Counted from the stretch's first letter, positions 54,363 to 63,254 are shown. The stretch: DNA of 64,000 nucleotides from an uncultured Acidobacteriota bacterium (GCA_963843575.1 CAWJKZ010000015.1:160001-224000), one strand, 5' to 3'. Notes: generated from the sequence alone by a model not told the origin. Made by a program: numbers and translations.

Positions 54363-55304
54363 ATGGTCGAGCGGCGGCGGGTTCTCGGACGGACAGGGTT
54401 ATCGGTTCTCGATGTCGGCTTTGGCGCCTGGGCCATTGGAGGGGATAGGTCCGGCTGGGGCTATGGCCCTACCGACGATCGAACATCTTTGAGGGCTGCC
54501 GAAGCAGCACTCGATCAGGGATGCAATTTTTTTGATACTGCCGACTGGTACGGGCACGGACACAGCGAGGTTTTGCTGGGGAAGGCGCTCAATTCCAGAC
54601 GCTCCGACGCGGTCATTGCCACCAAGGGGGGACTTGACTTCTACCACGGATCAGTGGGCGCAAATTTCCACCCCGCATACCTTCGCTTTGCACTCCACCA
54701 GAGCCTTCGACGCCTGCAGACCGACCATGTTGATGTTTATCAGCTTCATAATCCGCCGCCTGAGATAATCCACAGTTCGACGGTCGTCGACGAACTGAAA
54801 CGTTTGCAGAGCCAAGGCAAAATCCGCTGGCTCGGGATCTCGGCTGCTACAGTCCAAGACGGACTATCTGCCATCGACGCCCTTTGGCCGGACACCATTC
54901 AGATTGCGTATAACATGTTGGCTCCCCAGGCCGCAGCGACGCTTTTCCCCTTGGCCGATGCTCGCGGGGTTGGAGTGATCGCCAGGGAGCCACTGGCCAA
55001 CGGCTTTCTATCGGGGAAATACGGAGTGAACGCGTCTTTCCCGCCGAGCGACATCCGCAGCCATTGGCCTCCCGAGGTCCTCTGGGATGTCGTGAATCGG
55101 GTGCAGATGCTTGCGCCCTATTGCCGGCCGGGAGAAACGATGGCTCAACTGGCCATCCGTTTTGCGCTCGAACCACGTGCTGTGTCCGTGGTGGTCTGTG
55201 GCTGCAAGACTCCTGAGCATGTTGCAGAAAACTTTCGTCAAACCTCAGTCCATACTCAAGCCACTATGAAATCTACGCTGATGAACCGGGAGGTACCGTT
55301 ATGA
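54363..55304 (+). CDS. Aldo/keto reductase
   Basis: LGRTGLSV, FFDTADWYGHGHSE, ATK, SLRRLQTDHVDVYQLH and PLANGFLSGK motifs; stop overlaps the next start (ATGA). Confidence 0.9.
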   Translation: MVERRRVLGRTGLSVLDVGFGAWAIGGDRSGWGYGPTDDRTSLRAAEAALDQGCNFFDTADWYGHGHSEVLLGKALNSRRSDAVIATKGGLDFYHGSVGANFHPAYLRFALHQSLRRLQTDHVDVYQLHNPPPEIIHSSTVVDELKRLQSQGKIRWLGISAATVQDGLSAIDALWPDTIQIAYNMLAPQAAATLFPLADARGVGVIAREPLANGFLSGKYGVNASFPPSDIRSHWPPEVLWDVVNRVQMLAPYCRPGETMAQLAIRFALEPRAVSVVVCGCKTPEHVAENFRQTSVHTQATMKSTLMNREVPL

Positions 55305-55738
55305 ACGAAACTACGGCCCAACAATCGGCTGGAACATGGGGAAGCCCTGGGGCGTCGCCACAAATGGCGAGCCCGTGCAACATTGCCTCCCTCGCGCCGT
55401 TTCCCCCAATGCTGCAGGAGGCGGTCATGCAAACGGTCCTGGAGGCCAAGTGCGAAAGGGCCACTGATATCTGGTACGACGACGAGGCCAACAAGTCCCT
55501 CGTTGTCATGCGTCTCGGCGTCCAATGGCAGTTGAACGAGACGGCGAGGGCGCTCTGGCTCCGTCTCGGGAAGCGCGTGGGAGAAATCGTCGATGAATTA
55601 AGTAAGGAATACCCCGGCACGGATTCTCAGCAGATCAAATATCTCACCGTTGAGTTCGTTCTGAACGCGACCTCGCACGGGATTGTTGATCTTGTCTCGG
55701 AGCCGCCTGGAGAAAAGGCCAAGAAGAAGCAGTCTTAG
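55301..55738 (+). CDS. Stand-alone PqqD-family RiPP recognition element (RRE)
   Basis: Three beta-strand-like segments, then LNETARALW..L...VGEIVDELSKEY...VEFV......GIV, matching the PqqD winged-helix pattern; GGAGG RBS. Confidence 0.78.
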   Translation: MNETTAQQSAGTWGSPGASPQMASPCNIASLAPFPPMLQEAVMQTVLEAKCERATDIWYDDEANKSLVVMRLGVQWQLNETARALWLRLGKRVGEIVDELSKEYPGTDSQQIKYLTVEFVLNATSHGIVDLVSEPPGEKAKKKQS

Positions 55739-55842
55739 GCGCAACTCGGTTCGTGAACTGTCCGGATCCCCCCCCGCCCCCCCCATGAAGGAACCGTTTC
55801 ATCCCGTGGTTCTCTTCACGTCCGTGGCTATCAGGAATCAAC

Positions 55843-57330
55843 ATGCAACGACACACGATCGACCAGTCCACGTGTTTTGTCCCGTGGCCAACGAACGGGC
55901 GAACAGCCGGGAATGGCGCGATCAGAATCCGGTTGTTTCAACGCGTGGTTGCTCCGTGGACTCAGCCCACCGCCGTCTGGGAGTTCGGACCGCTCACCGG
56001 CTCCGTGGAGGGATTGGATATCTCCTTATGGCGATTCGACCTCCGTTCGATGCGTCTGCGCAGCAGTCAAGGCACGTGCCTGGCTCATACGTTTAGCGAG
56101 GCGAAAAATCTCGATTTTTCGGAACGTATGGTGCTTGAAGTATCGTCATCGACGGTCGGGGGGGCGGGATGGTCTCAATTCGAGGTGGATCTGTTTGTGC
56201 CGCCGGACGAGCTTGATGGGATGAAACGCCGGCTCCGGCTCAGCCGGGTCCCCCCGATCGAATGGTTTTTTGTTGAGCTGACCAACCGATGCAATTTCCG
56301 GTGTGCCTGGTGTCCCAGCGTAAAGATGGCGCGGGGACGCGGCGCCATGCCGCTGGCTCGAGCCAAGGTCTTAATGGAGGAGATCGCCGCCTATCGACGG
56401 CGCCATCCTCTGTTCTCCCTATACGCACAGATCCAGAATCCGGTGTTCCTGCACGTCATGGGCGAGCCTCTCCTGCACCCCGATTTTTTTGAAATCGTCC
56501 GACACGGCCAGGATCTCGGACTGAACTTCTGCCTGGTCACCAATGCGAGCCTCATCAAAGGGGAGATGGTTCGCCGGCTGCTGGAAAGCAACTTGAATTC
56601 GATCGTCCTGAGCCTCAACGCTCCGGACGAGGCCTCCTTCTCTCAAGCGCGTGCCCCCCTTTCGTACGGCCGTCTGGTTGCACAGGTTCAGGAGCTTGTG
56701 CGGGAGCGGTATCGGCGCGGCAGCACGCTTCCGCGCCTGGAGCTTCAACTCATCAATTCCAAACGGGTCCGCTGGTCGGCCTTCCCCCTGGTGGACGAAC
56801 CTGAGCAGGTGGCGCGGCAACTCGTGTTCTGGTCGGATTTCGTGCAGTCGCTGGAGAAAGCGAGCGGTGTCATCTCCTGTGGGCTCGAACCCGCCGAGGC
56901 AGCGCGCTGGCAGACCGTCCTGGAGCGCGAGACCAACGATCGGGGCATCTACTTCGAACTGGGACTGAACCTGTCGCTGACTTTCAAGCTGGCCTGCAAC
57001 TTCGGCAACGAGCTGTTGCCGGACCACCTGAAGGTGCTTGAGACCTCCAGCGGGGTCTGCCACTTCAGGAACGCCTATCGGACGTTTTGCGTGTTCTGGG
57101 ACGGCTCTTGTACTTTTTGTTCGCTTGATTACGACAACGAAGTCAATCTGGGCAATGTCTTTGAACAAGGCATCGATGCGATCTGGACAGGTGAGAGTCT
57201 CACCCGAATCCGCGGTCTGGCCGAACACGGCGTTCTGGCCGAACCGCTGTGTCGCCGTTGCATGGGCACCCTGGTGCCGAGCCGAGTCGCTCGAGAGCCA
57301 TCCGTCCCGAAGGGAGACATCCATGGCTGA
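55843..57330 (+). CDS. Radical SAM enzyme with a Twitch/SPASM-type C-terminus and a ~135-aa N-terminal extension
   Basis: ELTNRCNFRCAWC (CX3CX2C); MGEPLLHP; C-terminal C...WDGSCTFC..D....LGN...CRRC. Confidence 0.9.
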   Translation: MQRHTIDQSTCFVPWPTNGRTAGNGAIRIRLFQRVVAPWTQPTAVWEFGPLTGSVEGLDISLWRFDLRSMRLRSSQGTCLAHTFSEAKNLDFSERMVLEVSSSTVGGAGWSQFEVDLFVPPDELDGMKRRLRLSRVPPIEWFFVELTNRCNFRCAWCPSVKMARGRGAMPLARAKVLMEEIAAYRRRHPLFSLYAQIQNPVFLHVMGEPLLHPDFFEIVRHGQDLGLNFCLVTNASLIKGEMVRRLLESNLNSIVLSLNAPDEASFSQARAPLSYGRLVAQVQELVRERYRRGSTLPRLELQLINSKRVRWSAFPLVDEPEQVARQLVFWSDFVQSLEKASGVISCGLEPAEAARWQTVLERETNDRGIYFELGLNLSLTFKLACNFGNELLPDHLKVLETSSGVCHFRNAYRTFCVFWDGSCTFCSLDYDNEVNLGNVFEQGIDAIWTGESLTRIRGLAEHGVLAEPLCRRCMGTLVPSRVAREPSVPKGDIHG

Positions 57331-58606
57331 AGTGCTGCTGATCAATCCACCGATGTGGTCCCCAAAAGCCCACAGCTCTTTCACGGGGCTGTGCCCGCCC
57401 TTGGGTCTCGGGTATCTCGCCGCCTGCCTCCAACGGGAGGGCATCGGCGTCGATATTCTGGATTTGGACGTCAGTCCGGATCCTGATGCGGAACTGCGAC
57501 AGGCGTTTGCCCATCGGGCGCCTCGCTTGGTGGGCATTACCAGCCTTACGCAGAACCACTTCCTCGCCTTGCATGTGGCGCGGGCCGTAAAGGCCATGAA
57601 CAGCAAGACCCTGGTCGCCATCGGCGGTCCCCACGTTTCCTACCGTTGGGACGAGGCATTGGCACAACCCGCCATCGACGTCGTCGTGCTCTTTGAGGGT
57701 GAACGCACAATTGTCGAACTCTACCGGCAGGCGCAGCAGGAACAACCGGATTGGAGCGGCATTGCCGGCATCGCCTACCGGAATGGGGGGCATAATGAGC
57801 TGACTTCTCCCAGACCCCGCGAGCAAGAACTGGACCGCATCCCGCATCCGGCGCGCCATCTGCTGCCGATGGGCCGTTACGGAAGGCCCGGCACGATCAT
57901 GACCAGCCGCGGCTGTCCGATGAAGTGCATTTTCTGCATCTCCAGTACCTACGAGGGATGCTACCGCCCGCGCAGCGCGGATGACGTCGTCGAAGAACTC
58001 ACAGTGCTCCGGCACACCTGGGGCCTGCGGGAAGTCTACCTGTTGGACAATGTCTTCACAGTCGACAGTGCCCGGGTACAGAGCATCTGTGCGCAGATTA
58101 TCGAACGGAAACTCGGCATCCGGTTTCACTGTGTGTCACGGGCGGATTACATGACCGAGGAGCTCGCTCGCTGCCTCAAGGCCGCCGGATGCGAACGCAT
58201 CGAGATCGGTGTGGAATCGGGGTCGCAGGAAATCATCGAGGCTTTGAAAAAGCACATTACCCTGGAGCAGGTGTTTCGAGCCGCAGACCTCGTCCTGGGC
58301 GCGGGCATGCAGCCCATGTTCACCTTTCAGATCGGTTCTCCCTTCGAGACCGCCGCCTCACTGGAAAAGACCCATCAGCTCGCGGCTGACTTGCGCTCCA
58401 AAGGGGCCATCACCTTCTTCTCAGTCATGACCCCTTATCCGGGAACGCCCTTCGCTGAACGTGCGGAGGAACTCGGGGTCGTGATCCGAGCGAAGGACTG
58501 GCGGGAGTTCCGGACATCCAACCCTATATGCGACATGCGCTATCTGAATTGCAACAGTTTGCGTCAGGCTTTATACAGGGAATTTCCCCTGCTGCAAGAC
58601 CGCTAG
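57323..58606 (+). CDS. Cobalamin-dependent (class B) radical SAM enzyme, probable methyltransferase
   Basis: VLLINPP, PPLGLGYLAA and GGPH (B12-binding domain); TSRGCPMKCIFC; GVESGS; PYPGT. Start overlaps the upstream gene end; GGAG RBS. Confidence 0.9.
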   Translation: MAEVLLINPPMWSPKAHSSFTGLCPPLGLGYLAACLQREGIGVDILDLDVSPDPDAELRQAFAHRAPRLVGITSLTQNHFLALHVARAVKAMNSKTLVAIGGPHVSYRWDEALAQPAIDVVVLFEGERTIVELYRQAQQEQPDWSGIAGIAYRNGGHNELTSPRPREQELDRIPHPARHLLPMGRYGRPGTIMTSRGCPMKCIFCISSTYEGCYRPRSADDVVEELTVLRHTWGLREVYLLDNVFTVDSARVQSICAQIIERKLGIRFHCVSRADYMTEELARCLKAAGCERIEIGVESGSQEIIEALKKHITLEQVFRAADLVLGAGMQPMFTFQIGSPFETAASLEKTHQLAADLRSKGAITFFSVMTPYPGTPFAERAEELGVVIRAKDWREFRTSNPICDMRYLNCNSLRQALYREFPLLQDR

Positions 58607-59704
58607 ATGCGGTCAATACCGCGAGGCACACCCACCGTGACCGGGCCAAGACAGGGCGAAGCCCCGGGATCTCCAGACCACCTTTACCTCGAGATCACGG
58701 ATCGCTGTAATCTCGGGTGCAAGCACTGCTATCTGGGGGCGCACCCCGGCGGCAGGCACATGATGCAGGGCCGGGCTGTGCGCGCAGCGCTGTCGGACTT
58801 TGCCGCCATGGGCGGTCGCACCGTTTCGTTCAGCGGTGGTGAACCGCTGTTGCATCCCGAGTGGAAATCGTTGCTGGCACACGCGGCTCGGCTCGGCCTC
58901 GGGTGCACGTTGATCACGAACGGCACCATGCTCGACAAGGAGGCGATTGACGCCTCGGTGCGTCTGGGCGCGAGGATTGCGCTAAGTATCGACGGGAGTC
59001 AGGCCGCGACCCACGACGCGATTCGGGGCCGCGGGAACTTCGCGCGGGTCCAGACGGCTCTGAAGAATCTCGGGGCGATTGGAGCACAAGGGCAGGTGAT
59101 TGTCTGCTTCACACCCATGAGACGGAATCTGAACGATTTAATTCCTTTGGCCAAAGCGCTCCACCGGGACGGATTTCATCAGCTCTACGTGTCCCTCCTG
59201 GAAGATCGTGGCCGGAAACGAGCCCACGATCGGGAGCTGTCGCTGGACACTGGGGAGCGGGTTCGTTTGTTGACCCAGTTGGTCCTCTTGCTCACCGACC
59301 CGAGCCTGGCAATGCACGTGGATACAGGCCATCTGACGTATTTTTTTGAGCGCCTCCTGGGAAAACCGGATGGGCTCGGCGACCCGATTGAGGGAACCTT
59401 GCGTGTGGCCCCTACGGGCCAAGTCTACCTGAGCGCGTATGTGGATGATGAGGCATTCCGTTTGGGAAGTCTGCAGGAAGCAAACCTGCGGGAGTGCTTC
59501 CTGTCGGAGCGCGTCCGTGTCCTTTATGCGCAAGCCAGAGAACGGCAGGACGGTCTGCCGGCATGTCGCGATTGCCCGCACTGGATCGTGTGTGGTGGTG
59601 GCAGCCCCGCTCGCGCGTATGCGAACAACGGCTGTTTGTCCACCCCGGACGAATTCTGCGAGGCTAAACGTATCTTTCTGGAGCGATGGTACCGTGCAGT
59701 GTGA
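58607..59704 (+). CDS. Radical SAM / SPASM peptide maturase-like enzyme
   Basis: EITDRCNLGCKHC; SGGEPLLH; SIDG...HDAIRG.GNF; C-terminal CRDCPHWIVC...C; directly abuts the upstream stop (TAGATG). Confidence 0.9.
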   Translation: MRSIPRGTPTVTGPRQGEAPGSPDHLYLEITDRCNLGCKHCYLGAHPGGRHMMQGRAVRAALSDFAAMGGRTVSFSGGEPLLHPEWKSLLAHAARLGLGCTLITNGTMLDKEAIDASVRLGARIALSIDGSQAATHDAIRGRGNFARVQTALKNLGAIGAQGQVIVCFTPMRRNLNDLIPLAKALHRDGFHQLYVSLLEDRGRKRAHDRELSLDTGERVRLLTQLVLLLTDPSLAMHVDTGHLTYFFERLLGKPDGLGDPIEGTLRVAPTGQVYLSAYVDDEAFRLGSLQEANLRECFLSERVRVLYAQARERQDGLPACRDCPHWIVCGGGSPARAYANNGCLSTPDEFCEAKRIFLERWYRAV

Positions 59705-59869
59705 AAGCTGCAGGTACCGCGCCCGGTAAGTTGCTTTAAAAAGTTCAGGGATGCCCATGCGTGCTGTGCACCCCGTGTCTGAGGCAGCCTCCCGGAGGGA
59801 GCATTTATTTCCAATACAAGTCGGAGGCGGCCGGTATCTCCAAACCATAACCGAGGAGAGGAGTTTGTC

Positions 59870-60859
59870 ATGACCGACGAACAACGGATATTCGTACCAC
59901 CGAGTGCCACGGGTTTGACCGCAATGAATCCGGCAGGCGGTGTCCGCATGGGCTACGCCATGGGCGGGGCTCAGAGGATGGCACCCATGATGGGTGGCGT
60001 CCGCATGGGCTACCCCATGGGCGGAACTCAAATGATGTCCCCTATGATGGGTGGTGTGCGCATGGGCTACCCGGCCGTCATGGGATACGTAATGGACGTG
60101 TCGGGCGGTGCGGGCATGATGCCGCGCATGGGAGGAGTCCGCATGGGCTACCCGATGGGCGGTACTCAGATGATGTCCCCCATGATGGGAGGAGTCCGCA
60201 TGGGCTATCCCATGGGCGGTGCTCAGATGATGTCCCCCATGATGGGTGGTGTGCGTATGGGCTACCCATCCGTCATGGGATATGGCGCCGGTGCCGACGT
60301 GACAGGCGGCGCGCGCATGGGAGGAGTCCGCATGGGCTATCCCATGGGCGGTACTCAGATGATGTCCCCCACAATGGGGGGAGTCCGCATGGGCTATCCC
60401 ATGGGCGGTTCTCAAATGATGGCGCCCTCGATGGGTGGCGTGCGCATGGGATACCCTGCCGTCATGGGATATGGCGCCGGCGCGGACGTGACGGGCGGCG
60501 CGCGCATGGGAGGAGTCCGCATGGGCTACCCCACCATGGGCGGTACTCAGATGATGTCCCCCACCATGGGAGGAGTCCGCATGGGCTACCCCATGGGCGG
60601 TTCTCAAATGATGGCGCCCTCGATGGGTGGCGTGCGCATGGGATACCCTGCCGTCATGGGATATGGCGCCGACGTGAACGTGGCGGGCGGCGCGGGCATG
60701 GGAGGAGGCGGTTCTCAGATGATGTCACCCATGATGGGAGGAGTCCGCATGGGCTACCCCATGGGCGGTTCTCAGATGATGTCACCCATGATGGGAGGAG
60801 TCCGCATGGGCTACCCCATGGGCACGCAGCAAATGGGTAGTTTCCGAATGGGAATGTAG
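59870..60859 (+). CDS. Putative multi-core RiPP precursor / Met-Gly-rich repeat protein (14 x GGVRMGY)
   Basis: Strong GAGGAG RBS; 22-aa non-repetitive leader; repeats invariant in protein but varying at synonymous codon positions; lies downstream of an RRE and three radical SAM genes. Confidence 0.82.
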   Translation: MTDEQRIFVPPSATGLTAMNPAGGVRMGYAMGGAQRMAPMMGGVRMGYPMGGTQMMSPMMGGVRMGYPAVMGYVMDVSGGAGMMPRMGGVRMGYPMGGTQMMSPMMGGVRMGYPMGGAQMMSPMMGGVRMGYPSVMGYGAGADVTGGARMGGVRMGYPMGGTQMMSPTMGGVRMGYPMGGSQMMAPSMGGVRMGYPAVMGYGAGADVTGGARMGGVRMGYPTMGGTQMMSPTMGGVRMGYPMGGSQMMAPSMGGVRMGYPAVMGYGADVNVAGGAGMGGGGSQMMSPMMGGVRMGYPMGGSQMMSPMMGGVRMGYPMGTQQMGSFRMGM

Positions 60860-60865
60860 CAACCA

Positions 60866-60893
60866 CTCACCCTCTCCTTCGGGAGAGGGTGAG
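60866..60893 (+). terminator. Perfect 12-bp hairpin with a UUCG tetraloop after the precursor gene
   Basis: CTCACCCTCTCC-TTCG-GGAGAGGGTGAG starting 7 nt after the stop. No U-tract follows, so it may be a stabiliser rather than a terminator. Confidence 0.6.
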
Positions 60894-61029
60894 ATTCTCA
60901 CATGGCACATCGCAGTGTCGCACCATCGCGTTTCGTCGGCATGAAACCTCGAGGTAACTCCTCAGGCGTATCGAGTGTTGGGTTAGAGAACCAAGGTGCC
61001 TCACCCGGGAACAAGCGAGGCGCAATTCC

Positions 61030-61815
61030 ATGACGACCCTGTGCCTCCATTCAAAGCCTGAAATGGAGGCCTTTCTCCGCCACAATACCTACTTGCATCT
61101 TTATGAGATCGGTGACCTGGACGACTTCTTCTGGCCGCGGACCCTATGGTATGGCCTGAAGGACAGAGGCCAGATTACCCAACTCGTCTTACTTTACACT
61201 GGAGCATCTCCTCCCGCCTTGCTTGGTTTCACCGAGGGGCCCATAGAGGAAATGGCAGAGTTGCTGCGATCTATCATCCCTCTTCTCCCCAAACGTTTTC
61301 TTGCTCATCTCAGTCTGAATCTGGCGGCGGTATTTGCAGACGACTACCAAATCCAATCGCACGGCACGTTCCATAAGATGGCGCTGACCCGCCCCTCATG
61401 CCTGGAAGGAGTGGACACGTCTGCAGTCGACTCTATGACGCTGTCCGACATCGATGATCTACAAAGGCTCTACCGCGCAAGCTATCCGGGGAATTGGTTC
61501 GATCCGCGGATGGTCGGGACTGGCTACTTCTATGGCATACACCGCGATACCGAGCTTGTGAGCGTCGCCGGGGTGCATGTATACTCCGCACATTACAGAA
61601 TCGCCGCGTTAGGCAGCGTAACAACACACCCGAACTATTGCAAACAGGGCTTGGCAACTGCAGTTTGTGCCAAACTCACCAAGTCGTTGATGGGGAGTGT
61701 GGAACATATCGGGCTGAACGTGGAAGCCGGCAACGCGAGCGCCATACGTTTGTATGAGAAACTCGGATTTGAAGGTGTCGCTGCGTATGGAGAGTATGCC
61801 TTCGAGTGGAAGTGA
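61030..61815 (+). CDS. GNAT-family N-acetyltransferase (C-terminal FR47-like domain)
   Basis: LGSVTTHPNYCKQGLAT (acetyl-CoA motif A) and LNVEAGNASAIRLYEKLGF. Confidence 0.85.
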   Translation: MTTLCLHSKPEMEAFLRHNTYLHLYEIGDLDDFFWPRTLWYGLKDRGQITQLVLLYTGASPPALLGFTEGPIEEMAELLRSIIPLLPKRFLAHLSLNLAAVFADDYQIQSHGTFHKMALTRPSCLEGVDTSAVDSMTLSDIDDLQRLYRASYPGNWFDPRMVGTGYFYGIHRDTELVSVAGVHVYSAHYRIAALGSVTTHPNYCKQGLATAVCAKLTKSLMGSVEHIGLNVEAGNASAIRLYEKLGFEGVAAYGEYAFEWK

Positions 61816-62420: not shown

Positions 62421-63254
62421 TCACTCCTGACGCCTCGAGGCAATAGCGTAGAGGGTTGCCTTCAGCTCAAAGGGGGTCAGATAGGGGTGCTTGGAGAGAA
62501 CCAGCGACACAATGCCTGAGATGTGCGGTGCGGCGAAGCTGGTGCCGGTAACCGTCTTATAACCGCCGCCCGCCCAGGGCGCACGAATATTGGTGCCGGG
62601 AGCGGCTAACTCGATTCGATTCCCGTAACGATAGGCGAAGGTGAACGAGTCGCCCCCCTGCAAGTTTCCGACCGAGATCAGAGACGAGAAGATGGATGGG
62701 AAACTCGGAGGGGGGACGTTGTTGGCCGCCGCCACGAGAATTGAGCGGCCGAAATAGGCAAGATCCGTCAGCTCATGCAACTGGGAGAAGTACTCCTCCC
62801 TCGTTGTGCCCAAGCTGAGGTTGACCACGTCCATTCTGTTCTCAATGGCCCAACGAAGGCCCAGGAGAAAAGCCTCACCGGTTCCGCCGCAGGACGGGCC
62901 GAGGACTTTGACGCTGAACAGTTCCACGTCAGGCGCGATGCCCTTGATGATGCCGGCACACGCCGTGCCGTGCCCAAAAGCATCGGTAAAACTGCAGGGA
63001 AGCAGTTGGGGCCCCGACGGAGTCATCCACACATCTACGCCCCCCTTCACGCTGCCCGTGATGTCCGGATGGGAGGCGTCGATGCCGCTGTCGACAACCG
63101 CCACTCTGATACCTCTTCCCGTGGAGTCTCCCCAGGCATTCTCAGGAGCCGCGAGTCGGGAAATGGGCCCATCGAGCCTCGAGTACACACTGCCCGAGTT
63201 CGCCGGCTGATGTCCCTGAAACCTCTGATTGCCTGTTGTGCCTCTGAGGGGCAT
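62421..63254 (-). CDS. Minimal cytoplasmic S8 (subtilisin-like) serine protease
   Basis: Catalytic triad motifs VVDSG, HGTAC and GTSFAAP; no signal peptide and only a short N-terminal segment. Confidence 0.9.
   Translation of the reverse strand: MPLRGTTGNQRFQGHQPANSGSVYSRLDGPISRLAAPENAWGDSTGRGIRVAVVDSGIDASHPDITGSVKGGVDVWMTPSGPQLLPCSFTDAFGHGTACAGIIKGIAPDVELFSVKVLGPSCGGTGEAFLLGLRWAIENRMDVVNLSLGTTREEYFSQLHELTDLAYFGRSILVAAANNVPPPSFPSIFSSLISVGNLQGGDSFTFAYRYGNRIELAAPGTNIRAPWAGGGYKTVTGTSFAAPHISGIVSLVLSKHPYLTPFELKATLYAIASRRQE

Follow-up and report, generated by a model that had tools for sequence, protein, structure and literature searches.

The gene cluster

We analysed a window of 64,000 nt from an uncultured Acidobacteriota bacterium (GCA_963843575.1 CAWJKZ010000015.1:160001-224000; positions are counted from its first nucleotide). 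On the + strand, between positions 54363 and 61815, the window carries seven co-oriented open reading frames (ORFs), among them genes for three radical S-adenosylmethionine (rSAM) enzymes, for a recognition element (RRE) of RiPPs (peptides that ribosomes synthesize and that are modified post-translationally) and for a 329-aa repeat protein. The cluster very probably makes a ribosomal, radical-SAM-modified peptide of an apparently undescribed family, with the repeat protein as its precursor. The features of the cluster are listed below; every Pfam assignment exceeds the gathering score.

54363..55304, + strand: aldo-keto reductase (AKR), first gene of the operon; PF00248, 186.5 bits
55301..55738, + strand: stand-alone PqqD-type RRE, 145 aa; PF05402, 34.8 bits (cut-off 23.4)
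55843..57330, + strand: rSAM1, radical SAM and SPASM domains with an all-beta N-terminal domain (residues 1-118); PF04055 and PF13186
57323..58606, + strand: B12-binding radical SAM enzyme; PF02310 and PF04055
58607..59704, + strand: rSAM3, radical SAM enzyme whose C-terminal auxiliary-cluster domain has four Cys; PF04055 is its only Pfam family
59870..60859, + strand: putative multi-core precursor, 329 aa; leader of ~22 aa with F-V-P-P-S-A-T-G, 14 GGVRMGY(P) cores, Met-rich spacers
60866..60893, + strand: GC-rich hairpin (12-bp stem, UUCG loop), directly 3' of the precursor stop codon
61030..61815, + strand: GNAT acetyltransferase (accessory); PF00583 and related Pfam families

The initial annotation had described these seven genes as co-oriented and had pointed to translational coupling at three junctions. 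All seven ORFs were found on the + strand where it had put them, and each coupling was recovered: an ATGA (55301-55304), genes that overlap by 8 nt (57323-57330) and a TAGATG (58604-58609). Its identification of the AKR, the RRE, the B12-dependent rSAM, the repeat protein and the GNAT also stood, while its labels for the two other rSAM enzymes ('Twitch' for rSAM1, 'SPASM' for rSAM3) proved to be exchanged: the Pfam SPASM match and up to seven C-terminal Cys belong to rSAM1, and rSAM3 has four Cys. In the AKR translation D-x-A-x-x-Y, K and H are legible, which we take to be residues of the AKR catalytic tetrad.

The repeat protein and selection on its cores

The repeat protein contains exactly 14 copies of GGVRMGY, the number initially counted. 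Gly accounts for 26% (87/329) and Met for 23% (75/329) of its residues; periods of 57 nt and 189 nt were reported for its gene by Tandem Repeats Finder. A G-G pair stands before every core (G-A in the other precursors described below), and the cores are internal, with the C-terminus reading ...RMGM. Upstream of the ATG is a purine-rich, GAGGAG-rich ribosome-binding site. In the whole 6.68-Mb genome the core DNA motif was matched 13 times in the forward orientation, with no reverse match and no match to the reversed control; all 13 fall in the precursor gene.

Among the 14 core copies 8 of the 24 nucleotide sites vary. Seven of the eight are third-codon positions with synonymous changes in the + frame, and at the remaining one the first copy has Ala in place of its final Pro. 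Because seven of the eight variable sites are of this synonymous kind, the pattern indicates that purifying selection acts on the core peptide of the + frame, beyond what slippage or chance would leave.

No NCBIfam or Pfam family was matched by the precursor, hence no NHLP or Nif11 leader. A search for near-length homologues of the repeat protein in a collection of 5.8 billion proteins returned none at E <= 0.001, itself included, and an ESM Atlas search gave no usable match. Gene callers miss or truncate such precursors, and that of the window is absent from the protein collection. Gene-calling errors were seen elsewhere in the family (records P0215 and P0208): the window RRE was recorded as a 103-aa fragment, and an RRE-fused protein of locus L027, described below, as 119 aa without its 19 repeats.

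The cassette in other genomes

In 60 relatives, the same-genus genome and an unpublished genome (G046) included, no rSAM1 orthologue was found (0/60); the best match (E 9e-16) covers the rSAM core only. In the 5.8-billion-protein collection rSAM1 has 29 full- or near full-length homologues (E <= 5e-62, 30-60% identity), whose hosts include Desulfococcus multivorans, Dissulfurirhabdus thermomarina and metagenome-assembled genomes (MAGs) of Acidobacteriota and Pseudomonadota. A profile of 28 rSAM1 homologues led to three clear loci in species-representative genomes and ten clear metagenome loci:

L026: Rhodospirillales MAG, species-representative locus
L027: Acidobacteriaceae MAG, species-representative locus
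L028: FCB-group MAG, species-representative locus
L042-L051: ten metagenome loci

Synteny was assessed by BLASTP of the window proteins against six-frame ORFs of these 13 fetched loci, which come from several phyla. The order rSAM1, B12 rSAM, rSAM3 is kept in all eight loci of sufficient length (L026, L027, L028, L042, L048, L049, L050 and L051). An RRE gene lies directly 5' of rSAM1 in nine of the ten loci covering this site, L028 being the exception, and an AKR gene (34-60% identity) directly 5' of the RRE in all four loci with at least 0.9 kb upstream (L042, L043, L046, L027). Copies of the B12 enzyme, 41-65% identical, occur in 10 fetched loci. By rSAM1 identity the loci form a close branch (43-57%; L042-L046, L048, L051) and a distant branch (~31-36%; L026-L028, L047, L049, L050). 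The GNAT, which had initially been counted as a member of the system, is not constant: it was seen only in the window and in L028, where a protein 33% identical (E 1e-34) follows rSAM3, and none was found in L026, L027, L049, L050 or L051.

A search for loci with rSAM1 alone as query gave 13 loci, all with remote rSAM-core matches, and a scan with the Desulfococcus protein P0007 gave no locus. The family was found in none of 300 other genomes of one order and none of 82 of one family (the Rhodospirillum rubrum genome discussed below lies outside both samples). The family is very rare and patchy.

Several loci have features of their own. The rSAM1 gene of L042 and the rSAM3 genes of L042 and L051 are split over two or three frames, which sequencing error or decay may explain. 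A gene for a Cys-less HesB/IscA-like protein (PF01521) follows rSAM3 in L026 (4043-5032 frame), L027 (13991-14287) and L050 (4558-4866); L027 and L049 have a second B12 rSAM. In L028, which has no RRE or AKR, a short rSAM1 is preceded by a family-less 768-aa protein (L028:1763-4069), and the GNAT is followed by an APH-type kinase (L028:8457-9563); this locus may represent a third variant of the system.

Putative precursors of the close branch

The initial annotation had suggested looking for GGVRMGY-type repeat ORFs beside homologous rSAM enzymes. Such ORFs, with G[AG]VRMGYP cores, were found in both close-branch loci that reach past rSAM3 (L051 and L048): each lies directly after rSAM3 and has its own ribosome-binding site. 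The L051 precursor has seven G-A-[VL]-R-M-G-Y-P cores and that of L048 at least three before the contig ends. The core peptide recurs in other loci with different codons.

A phmmer search of 1.84 billion representatives with the L051 peptide returned 171 proteins at E <= 0.001, mostly unrelated repeat proteins; among the 150 matches listed, four are clear family members (P0059, P0061, P0071, P0094). In five aligned precursors the leader residues F8, P10, P11, A13 and G15 are invariant, and the cores follow. The spacers differ wholly between precursors, while the core is constant. Those of the window precursor are very rich in Met, with runs such as M-M-S-P-M-M, and it is the only precursor with spacers of this kind.

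DNA patterns added no further precursor. A tandem two-core pattern, whose gap range excludes the window's own 43-nt spacing, matched 27 stretches in species-representative genomes, none of them family-type or beside the cassette; a looser single-core pattern gave at least 120 chance matches in genome contigs, with no true precursor among the matches listed. Units of G-K-V-R-M-G-Y-P were seen in a Prevotella pectinovora ORF (L199:5176-5447) and in P0096, P0131 and P0182, and no cassette is present in the 8-kb locus L199; these ORFs probably reflect a repetitive DNA element. Since such unrelated repeat ORFs exist, the core string does not by itself identify a family member. A run of A-R-M-G-Y-P / V-R-M-G-H-P hexamers was also seen in a Terracidiphilus MAG (L198:2612-2902), with no cassette genes in its 8-kb locus.

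Cores fused to the RRE in the distant branch

No VRMGYP ORF was found in the distant-branch loci. In all five of those with an RRE gene (L026, L027, L047, L049, L050) tandem cores precede the PqqD domain in the same frame, with no stop before the domain. The units are S-P-R-G-P-F-[AG]-V 8-mers, or 14- to 16-mers holding that unit. None of the five close-branch RRE genes, that of the window included, has N-terminal repeats.

More fused proteins (P0207, P0212, P0213, P0214, P0216) were retrieved with a profile of aligned RREs, together with close unfused ones of 144 aa. The number of units ranges from a single one in P0213 to 19 in L027. Records of two Rhodospirillum rubrum strains, P0227 and P0228, hold an RRE-fused protein with 11 and 5 units, respectively; the copy number of fused cores varies within this species. 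Variable sites of the fused units fall at third codon positions in 8/8 cases for L027, 5/5 for L049, 3/3 for L026 and 7/9 for L047.

Both core types combine a Pro and an Ala/Gly-Val pair with an aromatic residue that has Arg at the third position before it (R-M-G-Y and R-G-P-F). The leader motif F-x-P-P-x-A-x-G occurs in six of seven separate precursors and in none of eight RRE-fused ones; judged from these sequences, it appears to accompany a separate RRE and to be missing when the RRE carries the substrate. We found no published description of a substrate-RRE fusion in main texts; an RRE survey (PMC12710340) gives, in the part available, many RRE-enzyme fusions and no precursor fusion. If real, the fusion would represent a novel way of recognising substrates, and repeats on PqqD-domain proteins would serve as a search handle.

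The RRE and possible leader recognition

The AlphaFold2 model of the window RRE (mean predicted local distance difference test score, pLDDT, 79) has strands at residues 50-78 followed by three helices within 80-125. Foldseek ranked PqqD (5sxy) and TbiB1, a lasso-peptide RRE with leader (5v1v), highest, with target-normalized template modelling (TM) scores of 0.66 and 0.79, root-mean-square deviations of 2.4-2.6 A, E-values of 0.05-0.08 and probability 1.00. The long start of the window RRE is backed by unfused homologues of 144 aa with 64-76% identity.

For the RRE with precursor residues 1-49 the predicted complex scored 0.39, against 0.00 for the best of three controls, with at least 76% contact agreement between runs and a partner pLDDT of at least 45. 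Of 80 solved complexes 58 pass the mark applied to this score, as do 2 of 110 mismatched pairs; at scores of 0.60 or below only 7 of those 80 pass it, plus both passing mismatches.

Radical SAM enzymes

In rSAM1 a CX3CX2C motif lies at residue 150, and Cys 385, 406, 416, 423, 426, 470 and 473 are conserved; these residues point to a full SPASM domain. Cys 320, 323, 329 and 351 of rSAM3, conserved in all seven sequences compared, point to a single auxiliary cluster. In the AlphaFold2 model of rSAM1 (pLDDT 87) the N-terminal domain is all-beta and does not correspond to an RRE. Foldseek placed the generic SPASM/twitch enzymes SuiB, BtrN, DesII, SkfB and CteB nearest to this model (TM ~0.4) and gave no identity for the N-terminal domain. 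Searched by sequence against solved structures, the three rSAM enzymes had remote matches only.

In NCBIfam many remote matches were obtained and no cluster enzyme reached a cut-off. The best match of rSAM1 is a tungsten-enzyme maturase (77 bits against 380). The B12 enzyme is closest to BchE (152 bits against 481), followed by the ApyD equivalog NF050148 (149.9 against 750, over residues 19-383), and scores 103.4 with the RiPP C-methyltransferase model TIGR03975 (cut-off 281.85). For rSAM3 the best matches are StsB (101.2 bits against 625) and the MftC equivalog TIGR03962 (101.2 against 265), with which rSAM1 scores 34.9. The PqqE equivalog TIGR02109 gives 31.8 against 381.35 with rSAM1 and is absent from the best 25 matches of rSAM3. 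Triceptide equivalogs (YhhB/AmcB models) are equally far off, with 65.6 against 445 for NF041707 and 57.8 against 425 for NF041718.

Two known chemistries were considered. A splicease pathway appears less likely: spliceotides carry an X-Y-G motif in the core, and here the core has G-Y-P and not Y-G, which is present in three long spacers of this precursor only, and no cluster enzyme matched a splicease model among the NCBIfam matches listed. The reading as a cyclopropyl synthase was given up since the GYW motif, which marks these enzymes in the text available of PMC10878394, occurs in none of rSAM1, rSAM3 and the B12 enzyme.

A genomic island with a peptide export operon

GC content is 0.64-0.70 upstream and 0.56-0.62 in the cluster. 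G001, a genome of the same genus, is syntenic (82-91% identity) up to 53760, just after a GFO/IDH/MocA gene, and again from a point ~27.8 kb on, beyond the window, at L216:17585 (~81585). An island of ~28 kb that contains the cluster stands in place of a different stretch of ~26 kb in G001. A convergent operon on the - strand faces the GNAT gene and lies mostly past the window end; its genes, in order, and its two members within the window are:

Operon, - strand: TolC-like protein; HlyD; C39-peptidase ABC exporter; second ABC subunit; cyclic nucleotide (cNMP)-binding protein; uncharacterised protein; zf-HC2/GAF protein; S8 protease
62421..63254, - strand: S8 subtilisin-like protease, last gene of the operon; PF00082, 130.4 bits
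63267..64000, - strand: GAF-domain protein; GAF_2, 69.3 bits; its N-terminal zf-HC2 (anti-sigma-like) part lies past the window end (L216:2-604)

The initial annotation had seen no transporter. This holds within the window, but one begins ~2.7 kb past its end, and the S8 protease gene, inside the window, was missing from its list. Three of the export proteins exceed curated cut-offs: HlyD with TIGR03794 (324.6 against 156.2), the NHLP-type C39-peptidase ABC exporter with TIGR03796 (1057.8 against 853.3) and the second ABC subunit with TIGR03797 (918.9 against 709.4). The best NCBIfam matches of the S8 protease, mycosin and QhpE, are both below cut-off; its D, H and S motifs are legible in the translation. 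Both the Cys and the His motif of the C39 domain are intact (ECGA, HF). C39 peptidases cut after G-G or G-A residues, and the pairs before the cores may be cleaved in this way; the exporter and the S8 protease may be functionally linked to the precursor. Among the remaining small ORFs of the island, which were checked by eye and not by hidden Markov models, no other candidate precursor was seen.

Comparison with known systems

Close parallels are the mycofactocin and pyrroloquinoline quinone (PQQ) pathways, in which a stand-alone PqqD-type RRE and a SPASM-type rSAM enzyme act on a short peptide with Val/Tyr (or Glu/Tyr) as reactive residues; MftC and PqqE are among the remote matches of the cluster enzymes. 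Here, however, there are three rSAM enzymes, one of them B12-dependent, as many as 14-19 cores inside the chain where those pathways have a single one at the C-terminus, and a peptide exporter nearby, and the scores lie far under the equivalog cut-offs. The mycofactocin precursor ends in Val-Tyr; that of the window does not.

Borosins, in which the core is fused to its own modifying enzyme, an N-methyltransferase, are comparable with the distant branch in that cores and a component of the machinery share one polypeptide and recognition would be in cis. They differ in that the partner here is a non-catalytic RRE with the cores N-terminal to it, the modifying enzymes are radical SAM enzymes, and the window form is unfused.

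Proteusins of the polytheonamide type share the B12-dependent rSAM enzyme and NHLP-type export by two ABC subunits and HlyD with a C39 peptidase. Unlike them, the window system has no NHLP or Nif11 leader match, no recognised epimerase and another repeat architecture, and its B12 enzyme stays under the TIGR03975 cut-off.

In the poly-cyclopropylglycine RiPPs (TvgA/TvgB, TigB/TigE), as far as the available text of PMC10878394 describes them, an rSAM/SPASM enzyme modifies, copy by copy, a short motif that is repeated and in which a Val or Ile is conserved, and a second rSAM is present in the cluster. The repeated-motif precursor is a likeness; the differences are the lack of GYW, other motifs, and the additional B12 enzyme, RRE and AKR.

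ApyD, of the aminopyruvatide pathway, acts on a RiPP, methylating the C-beta of a Tyr that follows a Gly, and yields beta-methyltyrosine (PMC10635010, from the part of that text available). It is the second-best curated match of our B12 enzyme, and both core types keep an aromatic residue. The window cluster differs in having a stand-alone RRE, ApyD having one of its own, and in lacking a multinuclear non-heme iron oxidase (MNIO) and a P450; because 149.9 bits stand against a cut-off of 750, the B12 enzyme is not an ApyD orthologue. The likeness is a lead towards methylation of the aromatic residue, no more.

Interpretation

Three generic features of a RiPP system are present: a leader and cores next to enzymes, a PqqD-like RRE, and a peptidase/exporter in the island. 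The initial proposal that the repeat protein is the rSAM substrate has gained support from conserved synteny, from the recurrence of core and leader, and from RRE fusions in independent loci. Its suggestion of an undescribed class also agrees with our searches, in which no NCBIfam cut-off was reached and no description of the enzyme combination, the motifs or the fusion was found in open full texts, though supplementary sequence similarity network and biosynthetic gene cluster tables (PMC10878394, PMC10288494, PMC12710340) could list the family.

As to mechanism, the stand-alone RRE would hold the short N-terminal leader (F-x-P-P-x-A-x-G) and offer the 14 identical G-G-V-R-M-G-Y-P cores, one by one, to the three radical SAM enzymes. 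The B12 enzyme may methylate an unactivated carbon, candidates being the C-beta of the aromatic residue, as with ApyD, or the Val. The two SPASM/twitch enzymes might introduce one or two cross-links or dehydrogenations per core, most likely within the R-x-x-aromatic segment, whose spacing is equal in both core types. A carbonyl or related intermediate would be reduced by the AKR, and the product could be acetylated by the GNAT in this organism. Cleavage of the modified chain at G-G or G-A, ahead of each Val, would fall to the exporter's C39 domain and/or the S8 protease, the methylated, cross-linked units leaving through the HlyD/TolC system.

In a wider version, which we put forward tentatively and with more doubt than conviction, the two branches would be interchangeable architectures of one RiPP class: a free precursor with a leader and a separate RRE, or from one to 19 or more 8-residue cores placed on the N-terminus of the RRE with no need of a leader. 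In both forms three rSAM enzymes and an AKR would make small methylated and cross-linked units of new chemistry, many per chain, from each R-x-x-aromatic/Val core. Radical-SAM RiPP pathways are a main source of new peptide chemistry, and where three different rSAM enzymes and a reductase act on a single 8-residue motif, at least one unprecedented reaction may be expected. The presence of the family in records of Rhodospirillum rubrum and Desulfococcus multivorans makes it testable in cultured bacteria that are not pathogens.

Some observations weigh against this picture. No peptidase-containing ABC transporter (PCAT) was found near the distant loci with long flanks (L026, L027, L050), and the exporter was seen in this genome alone, the close-branch contigs being too short to reach its position. 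One precursor, P0094, has no leader motif, and the leader, by its sequence, seems unlike a classical double-glycine or NHLP leader; the predicted RRE-leader complex is a weak pass and lends weak support. VRMGYP also occurs in unrelated, cassette-free repeat ORFs (L199 of Prevotella, P0131, P0182). The GNAT is present in only two of seven loci that extend 0.8 kb past rSAM3, and for the role of the AKR no precedent was found.

The strongest competing explanation keeps machinery and substrate and differs in the product, which would be an intracellular, cofactor-like small molecule made in the manner of PQQ or mycofactocin, with identical cores giving copies and the AKR acting on the excised molecule. 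An RRE and SPASM-type rSAM enzymes on a Val/Tyr core do recall MftB/MftC and PqqD/PqqE, and MftC is among the best matches of rSAM3; the partner found most consistently, the AKR, is an oxidoreductase; core number runs from ~1 to 19 with the core sequence unchanged; and the distant loci with long flanks lack the exporter, the Cys-less HesB/IscA-like gene following rSAM3 in 3/5 loci. We nevertheless consider a cofactor unlikely. The MftC and PqqE cut-offs are missed widely, and none of the seven cluster genes matches a family of the MftD/E/F or PqqB/C type. A peptidase/exporter operon of the RiPP type and an S8 protease converge on the cluster in the same island, and so rare and patchy a family suits a secondary metabolite better.

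It is highly improbable that the repeat protein has nothing to do with the cassette and is a Met/Gly-rich protein that, for instance, binds Cu(I) or scavenges oxidants and happens to stand beside enzymes acting on another peptide or on a non-peptide such as a lipid or tetrapyrrole. Met-rich motifs do bind Cu(I) in other proteins, the best curated matches of the B12 enzyme include BchE and HpnJ, which act on non-peptides, and the near-length search produced no whole-protein homologue. But the Met-rich spacers are specific to this genome, while core and leader recur after the same cassette elsewhere; the other branch joins its cores covalently to the RRE, and a role of RREs outside peptide pathways is not known.

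That the repeat ORF is no gene, the region being a non-coding tandem repeat or the antisense ORF 59138-60607 (- strand) the real one, can practically be dismissed: the antisense ORF is longer (489 aa) and the + strand protein is missing from the 5.8-billion-protein collection, but the antisense ORF overlaps the rSAM3 gene by 567 nt and is judged spurious because core variation is synonymous in the + frame, in which a ribosome-binding site and ATG are present and whose peptide is spelled with other codons in other loci.

Other features of the transcript and the island

The hairpin after the precursor gene is unusually stable: the fold of 60850-60930 has -35.2 kcal/mol (z -4.59), equalled by none of 200 shuffles, and no U tract follows. 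It may act in mRNA stabilising or attenuation. A scan for promoters and terminators gave counts not above those in shuffles.

Near the island end a tRNA-Arg(CCT) (L216:14725-14801) lies beside an integrase-like remnant. The same tRNA species occurs in the unrelated Acidobacteriaceae locus L027 (14635-14711), ~350 nt past the last cluster gene, and may be a shared integration site of the window island and L027. Inside the island, at L216:13956-14632, a small AbrB/MazE-like ORF is followed by a Fic/DOC-domain gene, likely a toxin-antitoxin pair of the Phd/Doc type.

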